A DNA stretch of 63,474 bases, the filler included, from Neolecta irregularis DAH-3 (lineage: Eukaryota): assembly GCA_001929475.1 (NCBI GenBank). It is 15 parts of 15 records of this genome, joined end to end, with 100 filler letters (N's around TTAATTAATTAA, not from the genome) between each part and the next. Parts side by side here need not be neighbours in the genome. Positions count along the whole stretch, not along the records: positions 1 to 8,204 come from LXFE01001008.1; 14 more parts are not named here. One strand, 5' to 3'. How positions within the stretch are numbered: the stretch's first letter is position 1; each line of letters opens with the position of its first letter. Positions 868 to 59,970 of the stretch are shown here, piece after piece. Both the position numbers and the translations under genes were made by a program. Below the pieces are notes generated by a model that was not told the DNA's origin, did not search any database, and saw only the letters and a program-made list of their open reading frames with translations.

Positions 868-3800
868 TTATGACTTAGTTATTCCCTTCTTACTCGCAAG
901 GACTTTTGCCATTTGCTTTTTCAGCATGTAAAGGAACTCGACAGGGTGATTGCTTGCTTCTTCTTCGTTATATGGCAAGCCTAGTATCAAACCTTGCATA
1001 TTTGTGATAATCTCAGCACTGTAGACGACATTTGAATCCAATCCAAGAGCGATAAGCTTTGAGTGATCAACCGACATAAATACAAAGTCGGTCTTCAGGG
1101 GAATAGGAATGCCCGGAAATTTCCAACTTGAGGTTATCATTCTTAGTTGACAGCCAATAGCCTCAAGGGTTTCACTTTTAATGGAGGTACGATCCCCCTT
1201 ACTGAAAATAAATGTAACTCCATATTTGAGTGACATCTTGATTAGAAACATTGGCTGATGTTGAGTCTCTAATTTGGGTATCCAAAAAAAGAGTATGGTT
1301 TCCGGATGCGTTTTGCAAGTGTCATGGCTCCAGAGAAAATCCGAGGATTTAAAATAATTTTCAGAGCCATTTTCCTGATAATGGCTATTTCCAAAGGCGA
1401 GTTCACTTGCGTCCAGGAAAAGAACATTCGTCTTGATCTGCGCTGAACTATGAGCATACTGAATCCTAGCGAAGCGATCGAAGATCTCTACAGGAATTTC
1501 AGCCCGAGGGTTTGATAACGTTGAATACAGCTTTCTATATTCCTGTGGAATAGATGATACTTTTGGGATTTTTATCTGGGGTAGGTCCATCGGATTTGTA
1601 ATATCATTCAGTTTTTTCAGTGACTCCAGAGATGTCCGGTCAAAGTTTCTAAAATGCCCGGGTTTTTTCGTTGACTTGACATAAGACTCTAAAAACTCAT
1701 CCAAATTAGTATTGTCGGTATTTTTCGGTTTTTTTGTATTTTTCGACTTTTGCGGTGTTTTAGGTTTCCCGGAATTATAACTATTGGATATGGGAACAGA
1801 AGTGGGCTTAATCAAAGAGTTTTGCGGTCTCTCAACATTATTTCTTTGATCCGACGGATCATGTAGCTTGTTGACATTCGCTCCTGTGGATGTTTTACTG
1901 GAGGATATCAAAGAGCTTTGCAATCTTGGCTTTGATAACTCTGAAGAAGATAATTCTTGAACTCTACTTTTATCATTTTGGCGCAATTTGGGAGGAATGT
2001 TTTCAGCCAATGACTGCGGCTCAAACTCGGAAGATTTGTGATATTGAACAGAAGTAGGTTTAACCAACAAATTCTCTGGTCCTTTGACATCATTTTCCAA
2101 GCGATCACGTAGCGCATTGGTATTCCTTTCCGCGGATGTTTTGCCGGAGGATCTCGAAGAGCTTTGCAATCTTGGCTTTGACTTTGATATTGAAGACGAA
2201 TATTTTGGTGTAGATTTTTCAGCCCTAACTTCATTGTTCGGTTTGCGTGTAATTATTTCAGCCGATGACATAGTCTCAGATAGGGAAGAGTTGTCAGATT
2301 GTTTCTCGGTATTTCTCGATACATCTGAAGCATCGGTATTTGAAGGCCTCTTGGAAATCGCAGCTTGTAGGACATGCTTGTTTGCAATGGTGACTATCTT
2401 GGGTATATCGTTTGCAAGAACCTTATAGGGATGGTGGATGTAATCATTTGCTGTGGATTTCGAAGTACTAATGGAGGAAACACTTGCAGCAATATGTTGA
2501 CTCCACAAAGGCTTGACACTATTCATCTCACCATTGTCATTCATCCAAGATTTTGAGGGTGGGTCGACTTTATCACGAGTGACAACTTCCGCGAGTGGAT
2601 TTGTTAATTCTTTTTTGTTAGAACCACCCTTCGAATTGAGATTCTTTGTTGGATATTTCAGGGGGCTAGCAAGTATTTCACTCCACAGTAGACTGACACC
2701 AGCGTTGTTGCCATTCATAAGTTTCGACGCTTTTTGCTCTTCTGTTGGAGCAGTCTTTGGAGGTTTTGCAATCGACGAGGGGAAAACTTTTCCTGACCCC
2801 TTGACAGGACATTTACCGGAGGGCTCTTTCTCACAATTGTGAAATTCTTTAGACAGTTTTGTAGGGTTCGCTGGTAATTCTAGTTGACTGGCAGCAGGTT
2901 TAGGTTTTGCAGAAGATGGTAAACCAGGGTGAGATGGGTCTGATCCGAAGACATCTTGACGTTGTAGAATGACACGAGATTTCCAGAGTGCTCCCCTCTT
3001 AATGCTGTTAGTATTATATGTGGTAATTACTAGGTCGTCCTCGTCATCCGATAATATATCCGAATCACCAGAACTAAGATCATATTGTTCGGAAATGATG
3101 GATTTTGAATGGGATTCTGGTGAGGGAAAATCTGGAAAATCCATGGCTGAGGACAATTCAGACAAATCTCTGGTTGAGGACAATTCAGACAGATCCTTGG
3201 TTGGATACAATTCAGACATATACTTTGTTCGAAATGCATCAGATGAAAGCCTTTTATGTGAGTTCTCAAATATTTAGACATACATACGCAAATTGTTCAA
3301 AGTACATATCGGGCTGGAAATTTTCATCGTAAAATTGTTGAGCTTCATTTGTGAAATATATTGGTATTTTGGATAGTAGCATGCAGTGCGAGACAGCAAA
3401 CCACGGATCTACTTGTGACTGAAGATTGACCCTTGACAACTGAAAAGCATTACAATCATCTACATGTTAGCAATATTACAGTTGCGTGGTTCTTACCTGT
3501 ACCAAGACAAGCTTGAGCACAAGAATCATGATCAAACGAAACCTGGATTTCAAAAAATCCAGACTTTAGAGCTTCCTCTGCGTCTTTGGACACTACTACA
3601 AGCTGTCGAAAGGGAATGGTTTCGAAAAGTTGTGCAAGTGGCAAAGTACCAACGATAGAATCTGCCATAATATCCTGGGTAAGTTTATATTGTGCGACAT
3701 ATTGCAGTTGTTGCTTCAACATCGAGCCCTTGCTCATACGATGATCAGGAACCTTTGATAATAACTGACAATAAAATATTTGGAACCATGGTGGCTGTTC

Positions 3801-4071
3801 CAAAGTTTGTGATATTTGGAAAGCTTTGCAAGATTCTGAATGATATCAATGAAGTCTCTTGAATGGGGATCGTACCATTTTCATGGCACCTTTGAGCACA
3901 GTGATCATGAGCCTCTGGTCCATACACAATATCGAAGAATCCGTCCTCAAGAACCGCAGAGTTCCAGGAGGAAAGAAAAGTAGGATGATTTTCATGGACA
4001 AAGATGCCTTGTAGAAAGTGGGCTCCAGCTATCGAAATGACAGCACAAAAGAACAAAAACGCATGTCCCAT
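868..4071 (-). CDS. Secreted protein of about 1029 aa: signal peptide, two PAN/Apple-like Cys domains, long S/K/P-rich low-complexity region, C-terminal globular domain
   Basis: Three GT-AG introns (3836-3875, 3460-3496, 3251-3287) join the 108-aa, 115-aa and 783-aa ORFs in frame. Signal peptide MGHAFLFFCAVISIAGA. Cys motifs CAQRCHENESCKAFQ...FYCQLL and CAQACLGTDDCNAFQ...HCMLL. Confidence 0.8.
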
Positions 4072-5020
4072 TGTCTAGTGTCGGCGAAGAGAGTTCAAAC
4101 TGGGGAAATGGCGAGGGAACGCCCATTTAAAGCGAACCAGATCAAACATGTCTCAATCTATGGCTGCCACCGAGACATTGACGACGGAATAGAGCTCGAT
4201 AGCTGAAACTGCTGTTTCCAGAGTCAATCTGCGACATAGTTTTAACCTTCTACCGGTTTATGCAGATCACCTAGACACCCTTATTCCAGGTTTTCCAGAG
4301 CATCTCTCAAATCTTTCCAATCCCTGCCCCCAAAGAATCCCACCCTACCCGAATCCCCCAAGCCCCCTTGCGTATCAGTGCCTCACCCAAGACTCCATCA
4401 TGGAAGCTGTTGTCGCCCGCAGAGACCGAGGGGCGATTCCCACTGCAGGCCTGCTCCCGCCGGTTGCTCGTCCAAAGGATAAAAGGGTCTTGTCCCTGCC
4501 GCTCCCGCTGTTTGCAATATTCCACATCTATTTACGAATTAGATTTCGCTACAGGAATTTCTGGACTCCATCGACGAATTAGAAATTGTTCGCAATGCTC
4601 CTATACTGAATGAATACGCTCGCATGCAAGCACAGGAATTCGTCCGGGGAAGACTGGGGGAAGAAGTCCGTATTGGGGATATCAGAAACTTGACTCGCGA
4701 GTTAGGGGGTGGGGAACTCACTGCAGGCCTAATCCCGCTGGGCGCTCGCCATTCCCTGCAGCTGAACCTCGAGGATAACGAGGCTAGGATCACAACGACG
4801 ATAAGGTGAATGCATTTCGCCTAATTCATCCCACCATGCCATCCGATGCCTTGAATCAAAACACAGATCTGCCAAGTAGACGAGCCTGTTGTAACACCTT
4901 GCCAAGGTATTACAGTGACCTTGGCTTGGACAGCAGGGGCATACCAGCCTTCGCTACAAGAATCGGCCACAGTACTACTTTTGGAAAACGCCCAATAGAG
5001 CCAGATGTTTTATAGCGGAT

Positions 5021-5520
5021 TTCATGTTGAAAAAGAGTCAGCCATTGGTCTTTTCATGAACATTTCACCGGGACCGGAACGCCAAGCGCCTTTGGATGTC
5101 TCAAGAAGGGTTCATAGAGGAAACAAGGCCTTTCTTTTCTTATTAAATAGCAGACCTGTAGCTCACTAAGGAAGCAGGCTTTTATACAACCCGAAACCAG
5201 ACCCTTCCATAGTCAGTTTAACCTATATTATGTTGACAAAGCTCAAACTTCGCCGTTGTGGGGACAAGCTTTTGAAAGACAATACATTTTCCGGATCAGG
5301 AGGTTTCCTGCCACGATTCAGCCCATTTTCCAACCACAATGCCCGCATTCAGAAACATTCATGTAAAGAGTCAGCCATTGGTCTTTTCATGAACATTTCA
5401 CCGGGACCGGAACGCCAAGCGCCTTTGGATGTCTCAAGAAGGGTTGATAGAGGAAACAAGGCTTTTCTTTTCTTATTTAAACCCTAGCCTTCCCTCAAGC
5501 GAGTCAGTTTAACCTATATT
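5021..5520 (+). promoter_or_regulatory. Tandemly duplicated upstream region of the MLTKLF secreted family
   Basis: About 5021-5244 and 5286-5535 are near-identical, each ending in GTCAGTTTAACCTATATT-ATGTTGACAAAGCTC. A third copy lies at about 49214-49450. Confidence 0.7.
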
Positions 5521-6870
5521 ATGTTGACAAAGCTCTTCTTGCTGATCGTACTTTATGCGAATGTGATTTGCACGGCATCTTTTCTCGATCATTTCGTTCA
5601 AGTTGGGGGTCGTTTTGAAGATCGTGTATTATCTTTTGAGAATATAGTAGGTCCATTGTGGAAGGTGAAAATGATGTCAGTAAAAATTGCAACAAACAGA
5701 TGTGCAGAGGAATGCTACTTGGGTAAGTATATCTGCAAGTCATTCGTCATATTACGCCTCGAAGAGGAATTAACATGTCTGAAATTTGGGACCTCTTCAA
5801 AAGATATTGTTACGCAGCCAGGCGCTTGGGTCAGAGTAATTCAAGGAGTATACGAGTAAGCACCTGCGATTGAATGGAAAGTCTGATATTCTAGTATTCA
5901 TGAACAACGAAAATTTCCTCTTAAAGATATTTCTCAGGATATGAAAGTTAAATCAGGAGAAGAGTGGGCCAAGGATATTTTTATAAAATATGGTGGATCT
6001 TCAGTATTCCATCCAACGGCCACAGAAGCATTTTACTTACCTCTTTTACTCTTGTGCAGGAAGATTGCGATGCTCCCCACCCCACCGAAAGCAATAAATT
6101 TTGAGAATAATATTCTGTCAACTGTCAAAGGTCAAGAAAAGGATCGCACCGAAAATGGAGAGTCAAAGTCCAAATACCGCAAAATGAATCCGGGAGCCCG
6201 AGAAAATACACCTACTGAAATGATTAGCATGGACTTAGATTCATGGACAGTTCCTTCAGGAAGAAGCTCTTCACCAGAGCGCATTCAAAATATGGCGTTG
6301 ACTTTTCTACAAATACTCGGCGAGAATATTGAAGGCATTACCACTGATTTTAATGAGAAAGATCGGTATTTAATTTTTAAAGAAAAAGATATGCACCTAA
6401 TCGTTGGTTTCCCTCGCGTTGGAGAGTATATTATAATATGGGGGGAACCTCCGACTGATGAAAATAAACAAGAGGCAATTGCAGCACATGTATATGAACT
6501 CTATTTGCACGGTGTCACCGAGTATTCCTTTGAGAATAATCGTTCACAGTATTCTGGAATCCTTTCAAATTTGATTCGAGTCGACTTCACATATGATGAC
6601 ATCGATTATTTCGACGATGTGGATGTGGAAATGTTAATAGCAAAACTTGTTCTACAGGTGGCAGGCATATTACTTCATGAAATTGACGTCGATGATAATT
6701 TCTCTCACCAAATAAGTACTACACCATTCATTCGCGATCTCATGGCAATCGTGGTCTCTAACGTGTATGAGAAGAACTGGCAATCCAATTCTGTTCAATC
6801 TCGTCTAAGCAACAGACGATTAGGAAAACATTTCGTGGATACAATCATTACAACCAACAATGATACTTGA
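5521..6870 (+). CDS. Secreted protein of about 436 aa with an N-terminal PAN/Apple-like domain (MLTKLF family)
   Basis: Intron 5856-5894 (GTAAGC..CTGAT..TAG) joins the 112-aa and 309-aa ORFs in frame. Signal peptide MLTKLFLLIVLYANVICTA. Motif CAEECYLGKYICKSFV..TCLKF. Confidence 0.8.
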
Positions 6871-7708
6871 GAGTATCCTTACAGGAGCCTTGCCAGCAAG
6901 GATTGCAGGCACCTGTTTTTTCTTGTTAGATAGTCAATTGTCAATTGTTTCGCCGTTTGTGCACTTGATTAATCCGTGTAAATCGAATCTTAAAACCCGA
7001 CTATATACCGACCTTGGCGCATATCCAAGTGTTTAACATGCGGAGAATAAGACACTATGGAAGAATTCAAATATCTCTCTATTACTTCCCGGTCCAAGTC
7101 ATCTGAACTATGCCTCCAAAAAACATCCATCGAGGGAGCACTGAGAAGGTCAGAGCAGATGAATGGGTCGGCTCAATGCCTGGGGCTGTATCAAATGTTG
7201 AAATCTCGGCATTGAATTGGAAAAGTAAAAGTAAAACTTGGTCGTCGTCGAGACAAGCTTGACCCTCTCCATTTTCACACCAAACGTCATGGGCCGTCAT
7301 CTATATTCTGCAAATAGACCTGGATTGAGGCTGATACCTTGATTTTTCGGAATCTATTACACGGCTGGTTTCTGATTCGTTTGATCGTTGATAACGAGCG
7401 GAGTCTCGCCGTGCTTGAAGCGTGTGAAATCATCCGGGCTCATGAGAGTTTACAAGTATCATCCTTTCTCAAATACTGACCATCACGCAATTTTCGTATG
7501 AGAACAGCGGTACATGAAGCTACAACCGAACAAGTTGAATTTGAAGCCAAGAGCGGTAACTGGAAGTGTTGAAATTGTACCGTTGGTGTGGAGATGGAAG
7601 AGCACTTGTTTAGATTGAAGAAGAGACGGCAGATTAGTTTGGTCTAGGTTTGAGGCGAATTCGGATGTATATTGGATATGGAGAAGTAACCTGGCCATAA
7701 TTGATATA

Positions 7709-8204: not shown

Positions 8205-8304
8205 NNNNNNNNNNNNNNNNNNNNNNNNNNNNNNNNNNNNNNNNNNNNTTAATTAATTAANNNNNNNNNNNNNNNNNNNNNNNNNNNNNNNNNNNNNNNN
8301 NNNN
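8205..8304. other. Artificial contig spacer N44-TTAATTAATTAA-N44 (first of 14)
   Basis: Identical 100-nt spacers with stops in all frames start at 8205, 13586, 15072, 18057, 21883, 32946, 35761, 39460, 45449, 46744, 47916, 49681, 50951 and 61801. Confidence 0.98.
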
Positions 8305-9295: not shown

Positions 9296-9497
9296 TGCAA
9301 GTGTTGAAGCTCGAGTACAATAAGATCAGGTTATACTTCCTTAATCTAAGCTTGTAGATTTGTAAGCTTAGACCAACTGAGTGTAACCTTTATATACATT
9401 TGACATTTCGATATAATGTCCCTTATTTCTTTCTCTGCCACTTACTGTATGTATTGGTGCTGGTATATCCAGCTAATACCTCAGATACATGCTTACA
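9296..9497 (-). mobile_element. Probable solo LTR (family A)
   Basis: On the minus strand it reads TGTAAGCA...TATATAAAGG...TCTACAAGCTTAGATTAAGG...CTTGCA. The same 3' end recurs at 35861-35925 and 48698-48818. Flanks TTACC/TTATT look like a decayed 5-bp TSD. Confidence 0.55.
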
Positions 9498-9979: not shown

Positions 9980-10624
9980 GGACACCGTTTCCGGCGGGGT
10001 CGGGCGGGCGGGTCAAAACCTTTCCGGCAGGCGGGCAGGCGGGCGGCTCGTCTTTTTTGACAATTAGGATAGGTGCAATACAATATTCACTAAATAACCA
10101 AAATTGCCAACATAAAATGATTTCTATCTGGCCATTTCTTTCATTGGTGAAGTATGCTGCACATACAAAGTTCATGTCGTATCATCCTGTTCACTTTGTC
10201 ACGTGATCACTGACAAATCTTGCGAGCCTTACTTCGAGCAAATTGCAATCAATTCACAGTTGAACAACCAACCAACGTATTCAAAGGAAACAAGCACTAT
10301 CGGGGTCAGAATTTAAAGGAAAAACTAATGGTCTGCCAACAAATTCAATACAAGAAAGTCAAAGGGGGACCTTTGACTAAGCATCACATGGAAGAAATTG
10401 CCAAACGGCCATACAACCTAACAGCTTGCCAGAGCACTCTCTAGGTGGGCGGTTTAGATCTCTTGTTGAAGGCGAGAGGCATAACATCCATCCGCCCACC
10501 AGCCCGTCAGAGAGGCTCGGGCAGGCCGACAGTTCAGATTTCTCCGGCAGGATCATAGGATGGCGGCTTACTAATCCGCCTACTGCCCGCCGGCGGCCCA
10601 CCAGCCTAGCGGGTGGGCACACTG
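9980..10624. mobile_element. Non-autonomous hAT-like element, family 2 (TIR CAGTGTG[T/C]CCACCCG), left end eroded
   Basis: Ends with GGGTGGGCACACTG. Matching left ends CAGTGTGTCCACCCG at 18452 and 39631. Internal segments repeat at about 38250-38405 and 61901-62073. Confidence 0.65.
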
Positions 10625-15071: not shown

Positions 15072-15171
15072 NNNNNNNNNNNNNNNNNNNNNNNNNNNNN
15101 NNNNNNNNNNNNNNNTTAATTAATTAANNNNNNNNNNNNNNNNNNNNNNNNNNNNNNNNNNNNNNNNNNNN

Positions 15172-16619
15172 GGAAAAGTGTGACGAGGATTCTTGAATTC
15201 ATTGATCCTGGAAGTTCGTCACCTCGAGACTCTCGATAGCAACTCCGAATCCAAGACACCAATTTGTCTGGCTTGTCTAGAAGATCAAATTTATGTCCCT
15301 TTGATGTCATCTCCGAGCTGAACTTTTCATTGAGATTCTGCAGAACTCCTCGGATTCGAGTGTTGCCTTGTGCGAAAATATCGTTGTCGTATTCTCCTGA
15401 AAGAGCATCTTTGATTTTGTCTTGATACTCGCGAATGACTTTCGAAAGAAAAATCTGTTTTTGTGGGAGCGATCCCATTTCGGGCGGTATCTTCTTTAAT
15501 GTATTTTCACATTTTCGCCGATCGGCGTGCACTTCCTCCCTAACATGAGGTAATTCTTCGCGAATATGGTCTCTTAATAGATCCACGAGGTATAATCGAA
15601 GTCTATCGATGCCGACTCGTGTTTTACTGATCTCGGACCAGGGTGGCCGAGCAAAGAACGCTGCTTCGGACCTATTGCGCGACTCGGTATCGCAAGCGAC
15701 CTTCAATTCATTAAAATTTCGATTTCGAACAATGAAATATCCAAGCTTCAAAGGCTTCGCAATATTCGCAGCAAGGTCGAGAACCTACTATCAAAATCGC
15801 TCGTCAAACAAGGAAAAGACCTGTTGCTCAGCACCTTGGTCCACGAGATCCGGTTTGGTAATCACACCAAGCGTTCGCATTTTTTGGGGATCTGCTTCAG
15901 CAGCCTTTTCCAAGATCTCTGCGTTTGCAATGTCAACATTCGCAGGAATTACAGCAAGTATAATGGATCTATTATCGGCGATATATTTTTTAACAAGACT
16001 GTAAATCAAACTTATATCCCTCTTTGTTTGGTTTCCTGAAGTGGTTCGAATGTATCCCGGCAAATCGACAACCGTCAGATGTGGTTGTTCCGGACCGGAT
16101 ACTTCAATCGAGAGAATATCTGACGAGAATGAGCTCACCAAATTTTCATTGTTGAGGCCCATGTGTTTTGATGCTTCTTCAATCAATGCCAGGACATCAT
16201 CCAGTCGTTCGAGCTTCATATCCACGTCTCGAAGAGCCTTTTGTTCACTTTCAGGTCGCTTACTATCAGGGATAATTTGCACTCGTATGCTTTTTTCATT
16301 GGTTCTTCGAAGAATGACTTGGGTCGCAAATTTCGTACAAAGACCGTCTGATCGAGGGAACGGAATTTGAGTCAGCGCTTCCAAAACACTTGACTTTCCT
16401 ATGAATTGTTATCAAACTCTATACAATTGAGCGAATACCAGATGACTGATCACCGCAAACGATAATTTGAGGAAGAGAGATCACAGTATGCATTTGCAAG
16501 GCCCGCAATTTGTCGACCTTGTCCAATAGCCTAGAATGATCGGACGTCATAAAAGGCGACTTGATGGCTGCGCTTGACTCTGTGGTGTCTGCGGTAATTT
16601 TGGGAGTTATGACGCTCAT
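15172..16619 (-). CDS. Dynamin-family (Mx-like) GTPase, 3' end truncated by contig end
   Basis: LPQIIVCGDQSSG|KSSVLEAL (G1, split by an intron), PRSDGLCTKF, VDLPG (G3), TKPD (G4), LGYFIVRNR and GDELPG. Confidence 0.9.
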
Positions 16620-17361: not shown

Positions 17362-18056
17362 CGAGTATCATGTTCTTTCAGGAGAATACGACAACGATAT
17401 TTTCGCACAAGGTAGCACTCGAATCCGAGTTCTGCAGAATCTCAATGAAAAGTTCAGCCCGGAAATGACATCAAAGGGACATAAATTTGACCTTCTAGAC
17501 AAGCCAGACAAATCGGTGTCTTGGATTCGGAGTTGCTATCGAGAGCAGTGTTGGGACGGGCATGGGCCGAAACGGGGCTATTTCACGTGATATTAAATAA
17601 TACTATGTAGCCTCATCCTCCAATGTCTCCTCCCTATCCGCCTTCCTACCCGCCTCGCCAGCCTGTCTCGCGCGCCTTGCCTCTCTCTCCCATCTCCACC
17701 TCGCACTCATGTCTTGCCCGCCCGTCTCTCCCGGCTCGCGCACGTCTAGCCTGTTTGGCCTGTTTGGCTTGCCAGCCATGCCCACCCACCTGTCAGTTCC
17801 TTGCCAATATATCGATAAATATAAAGAATTATATACATGGTATAGCAATTTATACTTGCTTTATACCATATTCCTGCCCTGCCCAGTTTGCCACCACCCA
17901 AAATGTTTGTCACATGTTAGGCCCAGGGTCGGGTCGGGTTGGGTCGGACCCTCTGAAAAGCCCATCGGCTTTGACCCGTCCCCAACACTGATCGAGAGTC
18001 TCGAGGTGACGAACTTCCAGGATCAATGAATTCAAGAATCCTCGTCACACTTTTCC
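17362..18056 (+). pseudogene. Inverted partial duplicate of the dynamin gene, with small deletions and a MITE insertion
   Basis: 17362-17545 plus 17999-18056 are the reverse complement of about 15172-15432. Confidence 0.85.
17546..17990 (+). mobile_element. Complete 445-bp hAT MITE, family 1
   Basis: TIRs CAGTGTTGGGACGGG and CCCGTCCCCAACACTG. Perfect 8-bp TSD ATCGAGAG at 17538-17545 and 17991-17998. The empty site is visible in the intact gene at about 15230. Confidence 0.92.
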
Positions 18057-18451
18057 NNNNNNNNNNNNNNNNNNNNNNNNNNNNNNNNNNNNNNNNNNNN
18101 TTAATTAATTAANNNNNNNNNNNNNNNNNNNNNNNNNNNNNNNNNNNNNNNNNNNNGACGGGTGAGATACTCGGTGCGCACATGGTCCGGTAGCAGTGAT
18201 GCCGGCATAAGGTCGCGGAGAAAATATGGGAAAATTAAAAGATTGCCGCTACATATAATTTCATAAAATGCAAGAAAACATCAATGTTGAAAATACTCGG
18301 CTCGTGGATATTTTCATAATCGCCGAAGACTTGACGTGATCCCAAGCTATTTTTCTATCATTACTTGAGCGAAGAGAATCACACAGTGTTTGCACCACAA
18401 TGAAACTGTGGGGACTATTTAGTCCCACCACCCCCACATGACAGTACAGGC

Positions 18452-35860: not shown

Positions 35861-35925
35861 TCTACAAGCTTAGATTAAGGAATATAACCTAGTCTTATTT
35901 GTACACAAGAGCTCAACACGTTACA
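35861..35925 (+). mobile_element. 3' end of LTR family A
   Basis: TCTACAAGCTTAGATTAAGG...CAACACGTTACA, shared with 9296-9360 (minus) and 48756-48818. Confidence 0.5.
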
Positions 35926-38249: not shown

Positions 38250-38405
38250 TCCGCCGGCGGGTGGGCGGGTGGTCTTTTTTGTCAATTTATATAGGTGCAA
38301 TACAATATTCCCTAAATAACCAAAATTGCTAATATAAAATGATTTCTATCTGGCCATTTCTTTTGTTGGTGAAGTACCTGCAAATACTCACAAAGTTCAC
38401 GTCGC
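38250..38405 (+). mobile_element. Internal fragment of hAT-like family 2
   Basis: High similarity to about 10030-10180 (ATAGGTGCAATACAATATTC..ATGATTTCTATCTGGCCATTTC). Confidence 0.65.
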
Positions 38406-38581: not shown

Positions 38582-39394
38582 ATGGGACACGCTTTTTTGT
38601 TCTTTTATGCCGTCATTTCAATAGGTGGAGCCCACCTTCTACAAGACCTCTTTGTTCATGAAGAATCTCTTACTCTTCTTTCCCCAGTAACCCTGCGGCT
38701 CTTGACTCCGCATTTTCCGATATTGTGGAAGGATCGGCTCATGATCGCTGTGCTCAATTGTGAGTGAAAACTGGTACGATCTCCATTCGAGACACTTGAT
38801 TGATATCATCCAGAATCTTGCAAAGCTTTCCAAATATCACAAAACAGGAATCAGCCAACTGCATGGTTCCAAAATTTTATTGTGAGTTATTAGCAGAGCC
38901 CTGAGGGTTCTCTGTTGGCAAAAGAACTGCAATATGTTGCGCAATATAAGCTTCCCAAGGATATCCTGGCAGATTCTATCGTTGGTCAATCGATACTTAA
39001 AAACATTTTCAAAATTATTTCCCCTGAATAGCTTGTGGTGGTATCCAAAGACGAAAAGGAAGCTATAAACTCTGGATTGTTCGAAATTCAAGACTCGTAT
39101 GATCATGATTCTTGTGCTCAAGCTTGTCTTGATAGACGTAAGAACCACACAACCCGCAAGATTTACTAACGCGTAGATGGTTGTAATGCTTTTCAGTTGT
39201 CAAGGGATTTTCTTCTGTCACTGGTGTACAATGTTCAGGAATTAGATTTATGGCTCGCTCTTTCGCACTGCTTGCTACTTTCCTCAACAATTTCACAAAC
39301 ATAACTATTGGCGCTTTTCGTACTTTGGACAATTTTCGTATGCGTACCTATAATACTTGAAAACTCACATTAAAGGTTTAAATCTGACGCACAC
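38582..39394 (+). pseudogene. Paralogue of the 868-4071 secreted double-PAN gene; frameshifted and cut by an LTR
   Basis: MGHAFLFFYAVISIGGAH, the same three intron positions and HDSCAQACL are present. Frameshift near 38680 and TGA near 38761. Homology stops at TGTAAGGGTATAC (39395). Confidence 0.85.
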
Positions 39395-46843: not shown

Positions 46844-47915
46844 GGGTTAGTCATTCATATACTTACACAAGTTAGATTGTAATAATTATCTAAAATTATA
46901 TTATTAAATGGGTTATCTCATGTTGTTTGGGGTTATATCATATTATTTGGGGTTATATCATGTTATTTGGAGTTATCTCTTGTTATCATGGTTTATCTAG
47001 GTTTACAATGAGTTTCCATGGGTTATCATGGGTTAATATGGTTTTTCATAGTTTATCATTGGTTAGTATGGTTAGTATGGGTTTTCATGGCTTATCATGG
47101 CTTATCTTGGGTTTTCATAGGTTATCTTGGATATTGATAAGTTAGCATATATTATCTTGGGTTATTATGTGTTAGCATAGGTTATCTTGGGTTTTTATAA
47201 GTTACAATAAGTTCTCATAGTTTATCATAGGTTCTAATGGGCTATAATTGGTTAAAACAGGTTATAATAGGATAAACACTATTATATGGGTTAATATATT
47301 ATATAACAATATCTCACTATGATAACTTAATATATTTACTTTATACAATACCATATACTTGCTATATCTTATTACATTCTATTATCTTGATATACTATTA
47401 TAAAATATTCAGAATATAACTATCTATCCTATGTAAAGTAAAACTATATTATTCTATACTTAATAGTTATACTATAGGTATATAAGTTCAAATATTTAGA
47501 TTACTTTATCCTATATAGTATATTATTATAAAACAATACCAAATATTTATAACTAATCTTCCTTTATTTAAATATCTTATTTATTACCAAACTTATATTT
47601 TTTTACTTTGTATCTATTGAAATATTACCCTTGTTCATTATTATTTGAATAGTAATATAGTATAAGTATATAACCTTACATATACCTACTATATTTTAAT
47701 TACTTTGTAATATATAGTATTACATACTACAATATACTATAATATTCATATAACATTGTCACAAATTGATATCATATCCTATAGCATATATTATTGCAGG
47801 ACCTTCCTTTATTTAAATATCTTGTTTCTATACTTAATAGTCATACCTTAAATAAGTATTAAAATTTAATCTCAAATAACTATAACTGTAAGAATATTAC
47901 TCCTATCCACTTACT
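46844..47915. repeat. AT-rich, CpG-free contig with a degenerate 10-bp satellite (GGGTTATCAT-like, about 46905-47290)
   Basis: 10-nt periodicity is visible in register. Very high TpA content; no CG dinucleotide found on reading. Confidence 0.85.
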
Positions 47916-48074
47916 NNNNNNNNNNNNNNNNNNNNNNNNNNNNNNNNNNNNNNNNNNNNTTAATTAATTAANNNNNNNNNNNNNNNNNNNNNNNNNNNNN
48001 NNNNNNNNNNNNNNNGTTCAGCAAGTTTGGTTAACTTCACATAACACTGATAAGCGTAACCGCAAAATACGTTT

Positions 48075-48690
48075 ACAGCAGCCCGCGTGTCCTGACCCAC
48101 TCCAGCACTCTCACCCTCTCCAACTCCCTGGCCCGCTCCAGTGCCCTTACCCGCTCCAGCGCCCTGTGTGCTATGTGGCTATTCACTTCACCTACACAGT
48201 GCCCAACAATCATCCACGCGCTCCTGTGTTGTGGTATGAGAGGGCCAGCCTGCCCTCTTCTCTCGCTTAGAGCCTAAGGGCCGAAACGGGCTTTTTCACG
48301 TGATATTAAATAATACTATACAGGCCTTCTCCTCCCTAAGTGCCGCATTCTGCGTCTTCCAGTCCGTCTGCGCCTGCACCCAGACCTGCCTTGCCGAGGC
48401 CTTTGCGATCATCTAGGGCCCGCAGTGCTGGTGCTACACCCTGTTTCCCGCCCTCCGTAGCCCATTTGAAGATTACTCCCAGCCATGTCCCAGCTATCCC
48501 TACCATTGTTTTCTCTGAAATAAACTTTATCGAGGGAATTGATATTGGAATTTCGATATATTCGGCGGGCGAGGTGGGAGACAAGCGGGAGAGCGAGGTG
48601 GGAGGGACGGGCGCCAAGCGGGAGATGTGCGGGAGACGGGAGAGGGGCGAGAGGCGGGCGTGACGGGGTGCGCTCTGCTCGCCGCTGGGG
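48075..48690. mobile_element. Repeat mosaic: CCGCTCCAG 18-mer tract and a hAT family 1 interior
   Basis: 48075-48170 matches about 63060-63420. GGGCCGAAACGGGCT..TTCACGTGATATTAAATAATACTAT (48278-48320) matches 17564-17606. Confidence 0.6.
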
Positions 48691-48697
48691 TTCTTTT

Positions 48698-48818
48698 TGT
48701 AAGCACTGCCAGGGCTTGCATGGCCGCACCTGCTGCACGCGGCGATGTCCTTACATCTACAAGCTTAGATTAAGGAAATATAACGTAATCTTATTGTACT
48801 CAAGCTGAAACACTCACA
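48698..48818 (+). mobile_element. Short LTR family A copy
   Basis: TGTAAGCA...TCTACAAGCTTAGATTAAGG...CACTCACA. Confidence 0.5.
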
Positions 48819-48895
48819 TCCTCACAATACTCTACATACATAAAAATTGGTATACAAAATTGCAAACAAACATCATCTGGCTCCCATTTGTATTC

Positions 48896-49110
48896 TCAAG
48901 TATCATCGCTGGTTTTAATGACTATATCGATACTCTCGGGGAAATCTGTTCCACTTTTTTGGAGACTATATTTAAATGACCTGGATTTCTGGTTCTTCCC
49001 ATATACATCAGAGATCACGATTGCCATAAGATCACGAAGGAATGCTACAGCATGTGTCGGTACAATAAAATCAGTAGTTACGGATTGATGAAGATGCATG
49101 ACCAAGTTTA
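48896..49110 (-). pseudogene. C-terminal relic of an MLTKLF-family gene
   Basis: FLRDLMAIVISDVYGKN..IDIVIKTSDDT* aligns with FIRDLMAIVVSNVYEKN..VDTIITTNNDT* at 6727-6870. Confidence 0.8.
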
Positions 49111-49436
49111 GCGTGGGCCAAACGCAGCCTTAGTCTTACTTTTCCCAACTCACTTCCGCTAAAGACTTCAAACTTATGACTTAGGAAGGCTAAGTTTTAA
49201 CTTCTTAGTCTTACTTTTCCGGATCAGGAAGTTTCTATGACAGCCTCAAAATGCATTTTCCAACGACAATACCCGCATTCAGAAGCATTTGTGTTGAATG
49301 TCTCAAGAAGGGTTTACAGAGAAAACAAGGCTTTTCTTTTCTTATTAAATAGCAGACCTGTCACCCACTAAGGAACCAGGCTTTTAAACAACCTAAATCC
49401 AGATCCTTCCTCAAGCGAGTCAGTTTAACCTATATT

Positions 49437-49680
49437 ATGTTGACAAAACTCTTCTTGCTGATTGTACTTCACGCGAACGTTATTTGCACTGCATCTTATC
49501 TCGATCATTTCGAAAGATCTGATGATTTTTGGAACGACAAAAATGTAGCTTTTATGGGTCAAGTAGCCCCAATGTGGCATTCGACAATGCCCAGCGAAGA
49601 TATAATAGGCGCATGTTGTAGGCGAGATAACGCTGATGCGATATAACGACTAACCGAGTTATGCGAAGTTACAGAAACTT
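49437..49680 (+). CDS. 5' part of a second MLTKLF-family secreted gene (partial or disrupted)
   Basis: MLTKLFLLIVLHANVICTASYLDHF with the same upstream region as 5521. The frame stops at 49646, close to the contig end. Confidence 0.7.
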
Positions 49681-49780: not shown

Positions 49781-50950
49781 GTTATTAAAGGTTACCGAAT
49801 GGAAACCAAATGATCCCCTCGGCGGCTTTGTGCCAAGCACTGGGAATATTATTTGTGAACTACATCCTCGTCATGGTCTTGAAGAGAATAAACACTTCTT
49901 GAAAGTATGTCACGATGCTGGAAGGCGAATAGCAGAAGTTGTCTCGATTCATGAAAATATCAAATTGCTTTTCACTTTTAACGAAGATTTAAAAACTAAA
50001 CAAAGTGCTCTTTCATAATCTACTCTGCCTTACATTTCAGCAATCGCAAGCGCTAAATATGGTACTTACATTCCTGTTTTGGATCTAGGCAACGAAATAA
50101 GGTTATAGTGCATTGAAAAATCCCAAATTTCTTATGATACAGGTACTATCCTCAGCCGCTTGTGAAGAATATGTTTTTCCCGTGGGAACACGAATCATTG
50201 CAAGCACCTTTTATGGAATATGATAGTTTGATAATTCTCAATCTCGCTTTTCATTGGAACAACGTATGTTCGACTTGTCAAAGTATGCTGACATTAACGC
50301 AGCCCGATCTTGATGAAGAACACATTGCATACCTGATGCACGAAATGATACACATACTTGGCTTCTGCAATTTATGGTGCTCAAATAACACCAAACAAAT
50401 ATCTGAAGATTCCATCTTATTACCTCCTTTTTCCTGGGATGTGATAGAGACGAAAACAAACAAAATAATAACCATTGAAAATTATGACAGTTCGTACTGC
50501 AAATTCCTCAAGTTTAAGATGGAAGATAATTGGATAACAACAACTGAAGTAAAAAGGATTCTAAGCAATCTTTGGGGAAATGAAGCCGAACTTTGGTACA
50601 ATACTAGAAAGGGTGAAAAATCTTTTCCTATCCAGATAGCAGCTGGTTTCCATTCTGCAAAGACGAAGAAAAGAAACGTGGTTTTCAATGCAAATTTATG
50701 CAATGGCCGAGACATCGCCCTGCATCCCCCGGATATTTCACACGTCGAAGACATGAAGGCTGACTATTTGATGCGTCATAGAATTATTCCAAGTAAATTA
50801 ATCAAGCTACCAAAGAGATACCCTACCGGCTTCATAGGGCCAAAGATCAGAGCGATACTAGGTGCCCTGGGATACGGAATTGCCGGACTGAAAGGCGCTG
50901 GCGCAGTTGCAGTTCAAGATGACATGAAAATCATCCCGCCTCGACCTATT
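49781..50950 (+). CDS. Zinc metalloprotease-like protein (HEXXH), truncated at both ends
   Basis: Two short introns. Motifs YYPQPLVK, YLMHEMIHILGF, ISHVED..DYLM and IGPKIRAILGALGY. Confidence 0.75.
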
Positions 50951-51649
50951 NNNNNNNNNNNNNNNNNNNNNNNNNNNNNNNNNNNNNNNNNNNNTTAATT
51001 AATTAANNNNNNNNNNNNNNNNNNNNNNNNNNNNNNNNNNNNNNNNNNNNAACAACTAATTTATTATTACAGATGCTCTCTGAACAGAATTGGGGAGGAT
51101 TTGGTAAGATTTCTGTTGACGAGGCTATAAATTCAGGCAACTGATCTTGATTCTCGTCGTGGACCACGTAGCGGGTCGCCCCTTCGTTGTCTATGAATTC
51201 CAGGTCAGTAAATACGTTCAAGTAAAAAAAAAGATTGCTATCAATTTCCTCGTCACAGAATCTGAGGCAAAAACAACGAATAATTCAGCTAGAGAAACCC
51301 ACTGAGAATTCGAGACAGGAGTACAGGTAGACTGCCGTAAATATAATTTATCTATTCGAGAGCTAAGAATGACGCGACGATTCAGAGCTAGTCAAGGAAA
51401 TAACAACTCGTTTTGATAGACAAAGAAAGTCTAGATCTCAGACGATATCGAACGACTCTTGCCTTTTCATTTGATTATCTAATGTATAAGCCAAAACTAA
51501 TCTGGACAACTATTGTCTTCTTTTCTGCTACATCTGTTTATGCAGATTCTGCTGGTCCGAGAAAAGTCCGGGTGTTTCTTGGCGTACGAGCCATAAACAT
51601 CAACCAGTGTTTCGAACCAATATGGATCCCCGATTTTGCTCTGGGATAT

Positions 51650-52740
51650 CTAGATTGTTACAACTGCTCCATTGACATCTTCCAATAAATCGACTAGGTC
51701 CTCCATAAATGGACTCTTTTCCCACTTCCACCATCGATCGATCTCAATGAGCTTCAATTCTGGAAGCTTATCATCTGCAATCACAAGAGCCAAGTCCTCA
51801 GGCTGAAGCGTTTTGTGAGACATAACCGGATATTGCGGTCCTGGAAATCGAAGATGGCGAAGTTTTGATAGAGGCAATTCAAAGGTTGCATTCCTCAGGT
51901 GCGATAACTGGACCGTGAATTTGCAAAGATTAGGCATGTGGTGGAAGATTTGCGATTTGATTACCATAGCTGGTGAATCTGATGGGAGTGAGATGATTGT
52001 TAATTCAGTAATTTGAGCTCCATAGGTGATGAATAAATGGTCCAAGGTATGCAATGTTCCGACTTCGATAACAGTAACAGAATGAAGACTTGAAGGGATT
52101 TCTGAAACGGTCAAATATGAACTTCCGATCTGAGAATAAGATATGATCCTGAGCCGTAACATACAAGTTCGATCCGCTCCAGATGAGCTGGCCATTTATC
52201 TAAAGTAACTTGTTCCGACTTTCCTCGATTTGATTGTTTCTTGAGCAACTTCAAGGCCTTTAGATTGTTGAATTTCCCGAGATATACGCGCATTTGTTCC
52301 CAATTCCAATTGCCGACAACAAAAGACAAGTCCAGGACTTGTAGTTGTTGGCACTTTACAAGGATGGGCAAATGGACAGTGGAAAACCCAACTTGTGGAG
52401 CAATAAAATACTGTAGAAGGTGCAACGAGCGTTGTATGAGTTTGCTGGTCATACTTGCCTTGAGCGAATGCTGCATCCATCTAAGATCAAGGTATCTAAC
52501 GAAATTGCCGACCTCGCGCGATGAGATGGCGGCGAGATATTGGCGAATGTTATGGGGTGCCAAGTACGGGCGGGCATATAATAATGGAATAGCAGCCTCA
52601 TACCACTCGCGCGATACATATAGCAGTGGAATCAAATAAATATAGTCGTATTGTATGTGTGGTTGTGCAAGGAAATGGCAAATAGTTGCCATTAGTTCTG
52701 GCGGAAGTCGCATAGTCGAGATTGGTGGGGTATTTCGCAT
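51650..52740 (-). CDS. F-box/LRR-like protein (YLR352W-like)
   Basis: RLPPELMATICHFL..LLYVSREWYEAAIPLLYARP F-box, then FIAPQ and LQVLDLSFV. A 35-nt intron (GTATGT..CAG) joins the two ORFs. Confidence 0.8.
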
Positions 52741-52782
52741 TTCCGTATCATGCCGAAATAATTCCCCAGACGCCCCGGATCA

Positions 52783-53732
52783 ATGTCTTCGGCAACTGTG
52801 TATTTATTCAATAATCATCTCTGATAATGCTGATTTTTGGCAAGAATAGTCACTGGCGCATCAAAAGGAATCGGCTTTGCGGTTGTGGAATATCTTCTTT
52901 CGCAGTCTACGAATGTCGTCGCGGTTGCACGATCCGAAGGATCTCTAACATCGTTGAGATCCCAGAAGAACTTGGAAATTCTGCTTGGTGATGTCAAAGA
53001 GCCAGAAATTCCTGCCAAAGCAGTCAGGCTTGCAATAGACAACTTTGGCGGTTTGAGTGGATTGGTCCTCAATGCTGCAATTATCGAAGCCTCCAAGATT
53101 GCTGATGCGGATATCGAGAGATGGAAAACGCTTTACAATGTCAATGTGTTTTCCTTGGTTGCTTTTGTATGGCTCTCTTTACAGAAATGTCTCAATTGTA
53201 GGCGAAAGAGGCTATACCAGAACTGCGGAAATCGCGGGGAAGGATTGTGATGGTCAGCTCTGGTGCTTCTGTTAGGGCATATCAAGCAATGGGAGCTTAT
53301 GGAAGGTAATTATGTCGTTGGAATAGAAGCTGAATATCTTCAGCTCCAAGGCAGCTGTCAATCATCTCACAAAAACACTTGCCATCGAAGAGAAGGATAT
53401 CACTACGATAGCTTTTCGGTATGTGGATTTTCCATAGTCATTCCGATTTATGTGATAGACCAGGAGTGGTAGACACGAACATGCAGAAAGCTATTCGCGA
53501 GGATTGCAAGATACCTTATTTTCGATAGCTAATGTAAGATAAATCTCAGATGAGCCAAGCGGATGTGCACAAATTCCAAAGTTTATATGCATCGGGGGAA
53601 ATTTTATCTCCGGATCAACCGGGTAAAATTATTGCTGAGGCAGTACTCAGAATTGAATCATCTTTATCTGGGAAGTTTCTATCGTGGGACGGAGAGGAAC
53701 TGCACGAACTCAGAAATAGAGGTTCTTCATGA
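52783..53732 (+). CDS. Short-chain dehydrogenase/reductase (YIR035C/benzil reductase-like)
   Basis: TGASKGIG, LNAA, VSSGAS, WGAYG|SSKAA and RPGVVDTNMQ. Several introns, including GC-AG 53506-53538. Confidence 0.88.
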
Positions 53733-54939
53733 TGGGGAATTCAAGAAAACCACATAGACAGAAAAAATAATCAAACCAGTGTTTCTTTGCGACCGTTCTT
53801 GCTTGATCCCAGGAGACCGACACTTGCAGACTTTTCGACAATCTAAATTGCATACTTGGAAAGATTCCCAATGCTCTGATTTGAATCACCAATCGGATGA
53901 GAGCTTCTGAATCGATGTAGCCTTTCAGGGAATAATCATTACTTGTTTCAAGAGCCGTCATCATTGAACAAAGGGAGATATCTTGAAAGACTTTCTCTGT
54001 TTTCTTGATGGAATCCGTGTTCTTCGCCTAAAAAGCAGAATACTCAGTAGTAAGTTCCAATTTCACCGGACTTTAGATGTCTTCGAAGATTCTCACAAGC
54101 TTGTCTTCTGTAATTCAAAAGGATAATCACGCAATCAAGGCTTGGGGTTGTATTGCTGCCCTTCGACTCCACATCAAGTGATGTGTTATACGATGTTTAC
54201 CCATTTTTTTATAGGCAACTTTTCTGATTGAATGATGTATTATTCCTTGATGTTCTTTAATTTGAGCAGATGATCAAGACTGCTCTAAACATCCCGCCTC
54301 CTAAGTTCGCGTATGAAAGTTAACAGAAACACGCACTTCTTCTTCATTTTATCGACATCAGCGTAAATACTCCGTCATAAACGCAAATTTTCAAATACGA
54401 TAAACCGAAAAAGACGTTTTCATGACATCTAAAATACCTCATCGATGGGGACCCTGAGGTTGATCTGTCAAGTTATTTCAAGCTCTTCTGTCCAACGACA
54501 AAGGTTTTGTATCCATTCCTATCCTTTGCGAGTACTTTACCAACTCTCCTAGATAAGATCTCCGTACGGTTTCCCTTCTCAAAACACTCTTGATGTCAAT
54601 TTCGCAAACCTCAATAGCACAGATAATTTACTCCTTTTCCACGAGAAATATTCAAGGCGCGGCTGGAGTAGTTTTACTACCAGCTTCCATTTGAAAGCTG
54701 CATAGACGTTTTATTGTCTTCCAAGACGACTCTGTCAATGGTCACCCTCTTGCTTGACCCTCTCTTAATCTTTCCAATACATCAAAATTACAAAAGCGCT
54801 AGAATGGAATACACTGCAATGATTGTTATCGATTTTCAGAGGAGAATGCAATAATGAAACTCAACCTGTCGTCATTAGCCACCAGCAGGTCATTTGACTA
54901 TAAAAACCTCCAATTATCCTTCACCTCAACTGAAAAACT

Positions 54940-55487
54940 ATGTCTACTACGTCGAAAATGCCAATCGATTTCACCAGTCAAGGCTCGTCAAACCAAAAGA
55001 CGACTTGTAATTGTGGTGGCGATCCCTCCAAATGTGTCTGCTCAAATGCCACATGTGCTTGTGCAGGTTGCCCCAAAGCAGCCGGTTCATCCGAGAGGCC
55101 TCAAACCTGTGGATGCCAAGGAAATGAATCCAAATGCACTTGTAGTAAAGAAGCTTGTGCGTGTCCCAGTTGTCCCAAGAGAAAAGCTACTTGTTCTTGT
55201 GGGGCAAAGACTGCCGGCCAGTGCAACTGCAGCAAAGCTGATACAGAGAACAAAGTTGAAGGTGCGACCTGCAGTTGCGGAATGCGACCTGCAATGCGTA
55301 TGTACTTGAGCTCAGTTATGTGCTGAGCATACAGATTGTACTTGTTCCCAAGCTAGCGTGGAAAACACTGTATCTGGGAAAACTTGTTATTGTGGGAAGC
55401 GCAACGCCGGTGGTATTTTGCGATCTACAAAGCTTTGACTTACAACCAGCTTGTACTTGTGAACTGGCTGCTACTGAGAACAAATGA
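54940..55487 (+). CDS. Long modular metallothionein-like protein (about 157 aa, 26 Cys)
   Basis: Introns 55298-55334 and 55413-55449. Two CxC-x6-CxC-x4-CxCxxC blocks, then three CxCG-x6-CxC blocks. Almost no aromatic residues. Confidence 0.85.
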
Positions 55488-55573
55488 AGGCTTGCGTCCG
55501 AACAATGACTCAATGTTCACTACTGCATATACTAATGTATGTGCTTGAATTTGATTTTGTGCATTCCTTCCTT

Positions 55574-56559
55574 CTACTTTGCCGACTTCCTGTGCATAAA
55601 CCCTGCGCCAGCCTGATGAGATGGGAAGATGAGTGTCTAGACTTGTCAGAATTGTTGAAGAGGAGTCTTGTTACATCCGCAATCTACTATAGTTAGCATA
55701 GAACAGACTAAAGTAAGGGGATACCACAACATTCTCTCGTCGAGTAGCAGCAAATACAACAACTTCAGCAATATCTTCTGGTGTTAGAGGATCGACCCCT
55801 TCATAAATTGCATCCGCTTTACTCTTGTCTCCTCTAAACCGCACAACAGAGAATTCAGTCTCGACCTGACCAGGGTCGATTTCTATGATCCTACGTGTCG
55901 TTAGCATGGGACTTGAATCATCAAGATGCAAACCTGATCCGAGTGCTGATCAATTCTTTTCTGAGAGACTCGGTAAAGGCTCGCACAGCTGCTTTACTCG
56001 CACAGTAGATACTCCCGCCTGGATAAGGATCTCTACCGGCAACGGATCCAATATTAATAATATCTCCTCGACCACCTTTGGCATGAAGAATAGGCAAAAC
56101 CGCTTGAGTCATCTAGTTGATAAATGGTGATCTCAAAATGCTATCACACATTGAACAAGCCTAGAACATTCGTTTGCATCATTGCATCGATATCTGACGT
56201 GGCAACCTCACCAACCTTTTCGGTTCCAAGAACCATTCCACTGTCTGTTAGTCTGCTTCATAATCACTACTGTACGCATTATTGACCAGAATATCGATAT
56301 CTTTAAAGTCGTTGGGCAGAGATGCGATCAAGTTGGCGATTTCATCTTGGTTTCTCACGTCCAGTGCGGCTGAATGGACTTTGACGGTCTTGAATTTGTC
56401 TTTTAATTCGCTCTTGAGCTCTGCAAGTCTTTCAGTTCTCCGTGCAGTCAGGATGAGTTTAATTGATTGCTCGACCTTAGCAAATTCTAGAGCTGTCGAC
56501 CTTCCGATGCCCGAAGAAGCGCCTGTGATTAGAATAGTTTTATTTGTGATGCGGGACAT
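55574..56559 (-). CDS. NADP-dependent 3-hydroxy-acid dehydrogenase SDR (YMR226C/YdfG-like)
   Basis: [40 protein letters not shown] and [18 protein letters not shown]. Includes a 9-nt microexon at 55675-55683. Confidence 0.9.
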
Positions 56560-56908
56560 GAATGTTGCGATAGTGCGACAAAGCGGAGGTTTGTCGAATA
56601 GACAATGGAACATGCAGTTAAACGATACGGCAAAGTTGTAAACCATGGGATGACAGATGTTCATGTACCAATATACTATTTCACAATAATCAATCATTGG
56701 CACGATGATCATATCTGGTGGTAGATTGCGTTTTTTGGTCCCTTTTCATGGGAGACGTCTCCAACCAGCTAGCACTTTCGAGTTAGTGGTCTTCCGTTTT
56801 TCCAGTCACCTCTCTATTCATACTTTGAATACCTTTTACTCCACATATATCCTGCTTAGAGGACAACAGGATCACCAAACAAGGCTTTGACCTTGACTTC
56901 GAAGGGAT

Positions 56909-59900: not shown

Positions 59901-59970
59901 GACTACAAATGAAAGCGCTTCGTCATTAATAGCCAAGTTGATGGAATCCTTGCTTGTCGCGCAAATTTAG
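56909..59970 (+). CDS. apl3: AP-2 adaptor complex alpha subunit
   Basis: [68 protein letters not shown] and C-terminal [18 protein letters not shown]. Confidence 0.95.

Follow-up and report, generated by a model that had tools for sequence, protein, structure and literature searches.

A Putative Secreted-Protein Gene Family of Neolecta irregularis with a Conserved 5′ Block and a Divergent Mature N-Terminus

Introduction

In the conotoxin superfamilies of cone snails, as in the dermaseptin-type precursors of amphibians, a conserved signal peptide and 5′ region precede a hypervariable mature part. Motif-defined effector superfamilies are recognised by Y/F/WxC in powdery mildews and by RxLR and LFLAK in oomycetes, and the major surface glycoprotein (MSG) genes of Pneumocystis have an upstream conserved sequence with a junction element, the leader being a single expression site. 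The subject here is a gene predicted at 5521-6870 in a stretch of 63,474 nucleotides (nt) from the early-diverging ascomycete fungus Neolecta irregularis DAH-3 (the window; assembly GCA_001929475.1), which appears to belong to a multi-copy family of this kind. The window consists of 15 contig pieces joined by linkers of 100 nt (44 N, TTAATTAATTAA, 44 N). The gene and its relative at 49437 are on separate joined pieces, so that the 44-kb spacing between them is meaningless, and, since the joining is artificial, the order and distance of features across pieces are uninformative.

It is proposed here, with moderate confidence, that the gene at 5521-6870 is intact and belongs to a lineage-specific, multi-copy N. 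irregularis family that was unmatched in the protein collections searched. Its product would begin with a cleavable signal peptide and the short invariant motif (F/Y)LDHF, continue with a stretch almost wholly different between copies that runs into a PAN/Apple-like four-cysteine module, and end with about 325 residues of unknown fold that hold conserved islands and a second variable patch. The proteins would be exported, or possibly anchored by one C-terminal helix, and would bind outside the cell, the variable N-terminal module of each copy determining its target, which could be plant roots, other microbes, or the wall or matrix of the fungus itself. The common 5′ block would give all copies the same expression and export, and would be kept alike by purifying selection, with unequal crossing-over or gene conversion assisting, the kind of recombination to which the partial tandem duplication and the truncated relics described below point.

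Comparison with Described Systems

With the conotoxin and dermaseptin-type families the Neolecta family has in common that it is multi-copy and that the signal peptide and the flanking nucleotides are far better conserved than the mature start. Those, however, are small cysteine-rich or peptide toxins of animals with a propeptide, whereas the predicted Neolecta protein has about 436 residues, comes from a fungus and is hypervariable in only a part of its mature portion; no toxin-like feature was found in it. The Pneumocystis MSG system belongs to the same subphylum as Neolecta, and there too variable coding sequence adjoins a common promoter/leader block at a fixed junction, with mosaic copies and fragments. 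In contrast to that system, the Neolecta leader stands before many copies (on at least 6-11 contigs, and twice in the window before coding sequence), and the 5521 gene had neither an MSG Pfam domain nor sequence similarity to the MSG genes, nor were there telomere repeats in the window. Judged from the sequence, the Neolecta family is not a single expression site of the Pneumocystis type.

The motif-defined effectors resemble the family in being lineage-specific and predicted to be secreted, with a short motif, here (F/Y)LDHF, after the signal peptide and little similarity thereafter, but the Neolecta protein is larger, cysteine-poorer and without sequence relation to them in the collections searched. 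Among these effector families, the CSEP superfamilies I and II of Taphrina come from the same subphylum as Neolecta, which is itself called saprophytic in one paper (PMC7036362). An earlier interpretation of the window made from the sequence alone (the sequence-only reading) had described an effector-like family of host-interaction proteins. This label is not sustained, in view of the saprophytic description and of the protein itself, since effectors are small (usually <300 amino acids, aa) and cysteine-rich, and the predicted product has about 436 codons and, in its mature part, five cysteines, four in exon 1 and one in exon 2. On the sequence comparisons made, the Neolecta family follows a known pattern without a sequence relation to the known systems in the searches run.

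The Common 5′ Block and the Break after LDHF

The second copy in the window consists of an upstream block at 49215-49436, defined by blastn, and the 5′ part of a gene at 49437-49680, both on the plus strand, like all family features below except the relic. Its 1,665-nt piece (48016-49680) ends inside the gene. Between the genes at 5521 and 49437, 23 of the first 25 residues are identical (nt identity 0.893); right after LDHF the count falls to 6 of 26 residues, and it amounts to 9 of 36 up to residue 61, without gaps. Over codons 26-61, 50 of 108 nt match, compared with a mean of 29 after shuffling, and none of 10,000 shuffles came up to the real pair either in nt matches or in BLOSUM62 score (30), so that the region after LDHF represents diverged homology rather than unrelated sequence. 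Upstream of the two genes, blastn matched 5092-5244 with 49294-49451 (86.1% over 158 columns), 5425-5477 with 49294-49346 (92.5% over 53), 5488-5596 with 49405-49512 (91.7% over 109) and a distal block, U1, at 5287-5359 with 49215-49289 (80.3% over 76 columns). By these matches (80-92%), all 222 nt of 49215-49436 are matched at the 5521 locus, as a mosaic over the two tandem copies that are present there. The pattern put forward in the sequence-only reading, of a conserved promoter and signal peptide with a divergent mature N-terminus, is therefore borne out; the more than 200 base pairs of similar upstream DNA that it reported exist in that extent, but not as one colinear block.

The size of the family was followed in Logan DNA contigs of two public runs (X1 and X2) of one study, aligned to 4800-7000 at a likeness of at least 80%. 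On these 2.2 kb there were 131 contig records from X1 and 66 from X2, which fell into likeness classes of 99+, 95-99, 90-95 and under 90 in numbers of 33, 20, 25 and 53 (X1) and of 20, 6, 13 and 27 (X2); the depth of the diverged contigs was about 300-430, compared with 246-426 for contigs identical to the window. Site differences were taken from the best 40 of 415, chosen by support, and among these a letter other than that of the window occurred in 11 contigs at 5404, in 8 at 5130, in 7 each at 5854, 5917 and 6235, and in 6 each at 5562, 5565, 6346 and 6379. With up to 11 contigs differing at one site, the family is real beyond the two or three copies visible in the window, a number that would have refuted the sequence-only reading, and the counts are read here as variants of the order of ten, with many diverged copies. 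The flanks at 4800-4947 and 6946-7000 are near single-contig depth, which makes the repeated unit roughly 5022-6945, comprising the promoter, the gene and about 75 nt of 3′ flank (6871-6945, still common to other copies by blastn and contig alignment). The summed depth, which is not a copy number, rises to 5,000-6,500 at 5318-5539, the most repeated part.

The end of the similarity could be located from joints within contigs, which jump from 5596 to 5775, from 5596 to 5847 (2 contigs) and from 5599 to 5700, with four such contigs in X1 and two in X2. These jumps demonstrate that the alignment break, which the sequence-only reading had placed after LDHF from two genes, is common to the family as it appears in the contigs; all visible copies have the putative promoter and signal block in common and lose their similarity at one and the same base. 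Beyond a loose end at 5588 the letters are, by eye, nearer the 49437 type than the 5521 type. The depth of X1 is 0 over 5614-5687, a hole that proves nothing, and only the joints across it were used. Beyond the break, contig number and summed depth define conserved islands at 5318-5613, 5836-5909, 6280-6353 and 6724-6797, of which 5836-5909 takes in the end of exon 1, the intron and the start of exon 2, and between the islands there are variable stretches at 5614-5835 and about 6428-6650. Over 5878-6253 (376 nt), the alignment of one paralog contig contains 72 differences and no gap (about 81% identity).

Upstream Block and Its Tandem Duplication

The promoter region of the 5521 gene is partially duplicated. 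Tandem copy A (5021-5244) contains a TATA-like element, TATTAAATA, a 47-nt segment in common with the 49437 copy, and an ATG with the first five codons (5230-5244); tandem copy B (5358-5520) contains TATTTAAA about 45 nt before the ATG and lacks the 47-nt segment of copy A. The two are 94-97% identical (97% over 116 nt for 5032-5147 versus 5365-5480), and 5211-5244 equals 5502-5535 in 34 of 34 nt, so that the duplication claimed in the sequence-only reading is present, between 5021-5244 and 5358-5535. Copy B is probably the core promoter and 5′ untranslated region of the 5521 gene. From the ATG of copy A an 85-codon frame runs over 5230-5487 on the plus strand and ends 33 nt before the main ATG; it would act as an upstream open reading frame (ORF) if promoter copy A were active.

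A 27-nt stretch that occurs in both copies (5036-5062 and 5369-5395) matches the 3′ end of the intron and the start of exon 2 (5880-5906) at 70%, and sits within a 56-nt segment that is absent from the 49437 promoter. The likeness may be due to chance or may be a trace of within-family exchange.

The Gene at 5521

The gene is predicted to consist of exon 1 (5521-5855), a 39-nt intron (5856-5894) and exon 2 (5895-6870), with 436 codons in all. The conserved start of exon 1 (5521-5595) would encode the signal peptide, of about 19-20 residues, plus FLDHF; the remainder (5596-5855) is hypervariable from 5596 and runs into the PAN-like four-cysteine core (Cys 61, 65, 72 and 86). The intron, read from the sequence, is in phase 2 with the elements GTAAGC ... 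CTGAT ... TAG, and its removal fuses both ORFs in frame. Exon 2 has 324 full codons plus the stop at 6868-6870, and encodes a hydrophobic helix, MLIAKLVLQVAGILL, and a conserved RDLMAIV tail.

A 204-nt intron (5856-6059), used in an earlier model, is in frame too, but the 39-nt intron was preferred because the window also holds the annotated AP-2 alpha gene, in which the two introns with clean boundaries measure about 37-38 nt. (The AP-2 alpha ORF, at 57915-59849 on piece 51051-61800, matches a Neolecta irregularis DAH-3 protein at 100%, with Saitoella as the next best at 57%.) An in-frame 81-nt intron at 5723-5803 (GTAAGT...AAG) would use a rare AAG acceptor and excise the PAN-like core, and is kept as an alternative only. 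One paralog contig has a 1-nt gap at 5754.

The chance probability of the 325 open codons of exon 2 is 4.7e-8, and a codon-usage score trained on ten other ORFs of the window gave exon 2 a value of +0.173 in the proposed frame, compared with -0.08 to -0.33 in the other five frames. The proposed frame also scored best for exon 1 (+0.098) and for the 49437 paralog (+0.160). The predicted gene model is coherent in these respects, and its codon usage fits that of the other genes of the genome.

The Predicted Protein

That the product is secreted, as had been claimed, is supported by an N-terminus with the features of a signal peptide, namely a charged start (MLTK), a hydrophobic core of 12 residues (LFLLIVLYANVI) and CTAS with small residues at -3/-1; the Kyte-Doolittle mean over 19 residues is 2.02. 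The motif (F/Y)LDHF follows directly. The mature part of exon 1 has four cysteines (61, 65, 72 and 86) and exon 2 has one, along with three N-x-S/T sequons and the hydrophobic helix MLIAKLVLQVAGILL (encoded at 6629-6673, mean 1.87). This helix might span a membrane, although it contains Lys and Gln.

A PAN-like module in exon 1 is a lead. The cysteine spacing C-x3-C-x6-C-x2-F-x10-C follows the PAN core, and 28 of the 30 nearest Atlas clusters, obtained with language-model features of exon 1, are PAN_1 (score 0.93, 164 shared features, recognition 2780). Using phmmer against the PDB, the only two matches of exon 1 were to the PAN-type N domain of hepatocyte growth factor (2hgf/3hms), at a non-significant E of 1.4-1.5; the alignment at E 1.4 pairs three of the four cysteines, the first three, and misses the last by two columns. 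On the other hand, hmmscan against Pfam-A found no Pfam family in either exon, even at E≤10 (exon 1 was covered as 5521-5859 at E≤1 and as 5581-5853 at E≤10), and the readable part of the 49437 copy has neither the C-x3-C pair nor the cysteine core. The PAN assignment of the sequence-only reading is retained as a lead, on the cluster and spacing evidence and the non-significant PDB match, and finds no backing in Pfam.

In the PAN fold a helix packs against a curved, antiparallel sheet. A single-sequence AlphaFold2 model of exon 1 had a mean predicted local distance difference test score (pLDDT) of 37.5 and is uninterpretable, and the exon 2 model had a pLDDT of 45.8, its best VIA match (Z 7.1, frataxin-type sandwiches) being within the noise range. 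Two further searches with exon 2 were set aside, one in Atlas that led to clusters of plant hypothetical and mobile-domain proteins (recognition 2100, 132-145 shared features) and was uninformative, and one of the PDB by sequence that gave one match at E 1.7.

Other Copies in the Window

The frame of the 49437 gene meets a TAA at 49644 and breaks off at the piece end, 49680. A good branch site and an acceptor precede the contig end; splicing out the stop was tried with donors 49615 or 49618 and acceptor 49676, and each combination recreates a TAA. The copy may be degenerate.

A third copy is present as a C-terminal relic of about 50-65 codons with the first 3′ bases. It had been recognised in the sequence-only reading from its tail and is real, although its place is 48896-49105 on the minus strand. 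It matched by tblastn (E 1e-6 to 1e-8) at 46% over 50 columns and by blastn at 70% over 160 nt. It faces the 49437 copy head-to-head, with about 110 nt between it and the beginning of the block of that copy, and is preceded by no family sequence. Over 65 codons, the proportion of differing nonsynonymous sites (pN) is 0.388 and that of synonymous sites (pS) 0.348, as expected of a dead fragment. The same 1,665-nt piece carries dispersed repeats at 48750-48814 and 48278-48335, and it appears to be a portion of the family that has been rearranged and is partly dead.

Relatives and Annotation Status

When exon 1 was searched against 1.84 billion representatives, two matches were returned and neither is a relative, one resting on a 16-fold repeat and the other on a leucine-rich repeat protein, both through repeat or low-complexity sequence. 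Exon 2 (6061-6867) had no match in a collection of 5.8 billion clusters (lengths 147-471 searched), not even to itself; since the collection includes the proteins of this species, the product of neither exon, nor any paralog close enough to be detected, is among them. A metagenome locus that shares an octapeptide, in a small prokaryote-like ORF, was judged spurious. Repeat masking of a multi-copy family before annotation would explain the absent protein records. Literature searches outside the supplements of PMC5309816, which may list gene families or repeats, found no description of a secreted or effector family in Neolecta.

According to PMC5309816, the N. irregularis genome has 14.5 Mb, an N50 of 16 kb and 44% guanine-cytosine (GC), the gene set is small, and Neolecta is studied as a key lineage in work on how complex multicellularity arose in the Ascomycota. 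The family is apparently missing from the published gene set, which would then be incomplete, and in genes that report on the dealings of the fungus with its surroundings. If the proposed account is true, a family that combines an unchanging export signal with a hypervariable module for binding would be the first molecular hint on the poorly known ecology of Neolecta.

Selection, Conversion or Decay

The comparison of the 5521 and 49437 genes gave a pN of 0.034 and a pS of 0.353 (6 of 17 synonymous sites) for codons 1-25, and a pN of 0.574 and a pS of 0.387 for codons 26-61. The synonymous sites are few (17 and 21, respectively, and 42 in the relic), and pS is similar in all three parts, which argues for one age and different constraint. 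The contigs, among the site differences considered, gave a corresponding picture: 2 of 2 differences in the signal peptide were synonymous (seen in 6 contigs of X1 and 5 of X2), and of 11 differences in exon 2, 10 change the residue and none is at a third position. The rapid diversification of the sequence-only reading is plausible on these figures, and diversifying selection goes beyond them, as the pN of 0.574 versus the pS of 0.387 comes from 36 codons of two sequences, one of them possibly a pseudogene. Probably both selection and conversion act, and two sequences do not separate them; the family is thus a simple case for asking which of the two builds the arrangement of a conserved signal and a variable cargo.

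Several observations weigh against the account given in the Introduction, of an intact and constrained member of a secreted family. The excess of pN over pS after LDHF, which rests on 36 codons, is not significant by a rough estimate, made with no formal test, and would also be expected from a decaying copy. Two of the three window copies are fragments, and the one at 49437 holds an in-frame stop that the donor and acceptor pairs tried recreate. Alleles of the wild sample, or DNA of other organisms, may be among the contigs counted. The family is unmatched among the proteins of the species, although fruiting-body RNA is reported to have been sequenced and most N. irregularis genes to have RNA support (PMC5309816). 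The Pfam PAN models (PF00024) were unmatched, with 0 families even at E≤10, and both structure models are of low confidence. Finally, the upstream non-coding identity (80-92%) is higher than the third-position identity after LDHF (20 of 36), which fits a recent homogenisation of the 5′ block as well as selection.

This last point leads to concerted evolution, in which old paralogs would have diverged throughout and the promoter with the first 75 coding bases would have been copied between them recently, the sharp edge at 5596 being the boundary of a conversion tract or of recombination. It competes with the proposed account only as the cause of the inverted conservation, and in that role it is a possible, if doubtful, explanation. 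It would accommodate not only the excess of upstream over third-position identity, but also the tandem duplication of the block at 94-97% with a breakpoint inside the first codons, the contigs, one of which goes back 249 inside the block while others skip 305 nt, the promoter copies that are mosaics of common indels, and the truncation of the relic some 110 nt away from where the 49437 block begins. A recent conversion should, however, have lowered the pS of the signal peptide, and this value (0.353) is as high as that after it (0.387) and that of the relic (0.348), which counts against such copying, small as the numbers are; and the edge is only 5-6 residues past the predicted cleavage site, a place at which selection, too, would be expected to set a boundary. 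Neutral decay is the less favoured cause of the variability and is considered unlikely: the unit 5022-6945 would be a functionless dispersed repeat or a dead gene family, and may have been missed at annotation through repeat masking. In agreement with it, no copy was matched in the protein collections searched, pN and pS are about equal in the relic, the 5′ fragment has a stop, and the 1,665-nt piece carries other dispersed repeats. Yet the frame of the 5521 copy stays open for 436 codons through an in-phase intron and its codon usage is host-like, the pN of the signal peptide is only 0.034, and the paralog contig is gapless over 376 nt of exon 2 at about 81%; neutral decay would, moreover, yield neither a sharp common break nor islands that alternate with variable patches.

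The repeated block might alternatively be a mobile element, similar to a miniature inverted-repeat transposable element, that landed before unrelated genes, and mimp elements do precede effector genes in Fusarium. The block is locally duplicated and the most repeated part of the unit (summed depth 5,000-6,500 at 5318-5539), as such an element might be, but every block copy seen runs into family coding sequence (the 49437 gene, the four joints and the loose end at 5588), which speaks against the transposon that the sequence-only reading had itself considered. The gene body and the 3′ tail are repeated too; there are no terminal inverted repeats of at least 20 nt in 4700-7300, the longest pair being 19 nt at 79% and in the wrong place; and no transposase or reverse-transcriptase domain was found, with 0 Pfam families in either exon. 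A mobile origin of the block is therefore regarded as highly improbable. Hardly less speculative, and improbable as well, is the idea that the invariant block and the islands serve as fixed recombination junctions through which variable cassettes are exchanged, i.e., that a mosaic-generating surface or secreted system exists in a fruiting-body-forming relative of Pneumocystis; if true, it would point to a close association of Neolecta, supposedly a saprophyte, with a host or with competitors.

Other Features of the Window

The linkers are located at 8205-8304 and then at 13586, 15072, 18057, 21883, 32946, 35761, 39460, 45449, 46744, 47916, 49681, 50951 and 61801. An apparent 100% inverted repeat (15072-15237 and 17991-18156) includes two of them. 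Short dispersed repeats of 79-90% identity occur between pieces (3481-3913 versus 38736-39153, and 10031-10154 versus 38253-38376), and those on the piece of the 49437 gene recur as well, 48750-48814 at 9300-9366 and 35861-35909, and 48278-48335 at 17564-17621. Some of the dispersed repeats are at piece ends, and they may explain the fragmented assembly. Two arrays were also seen, a GC-rich 18-nt minisatellite with the consensus CCTCGCCCGCTCCAGCGC on two pieces (48073-48165 and 63039-63419) and an AT-rich 10-nt array, GTTATCATGG, with about 27 copies at 46972-47270, within a stretch of 26.5% GC.

Adjoining the family gene, a serine-rich ORF of 783 codons is found at 868-3219 on the minus strand. 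No Pfam family was found in it at E≤10, and direct repeats occur within it (1850-1935 versus 2096-2181 at 79%, and a 27-nt array at 3137-3218). On a piece of 1,170 nt (49781-50950), an open frame of 263 codons at 50162-50950 on the plus strand is cut by the piece end; Pfam gave no match for it at E≤1, and it contains HEMIHILGF, which resembles the zinc-binding motif of metalloproteases of the metzincin/leishmanolysin type.

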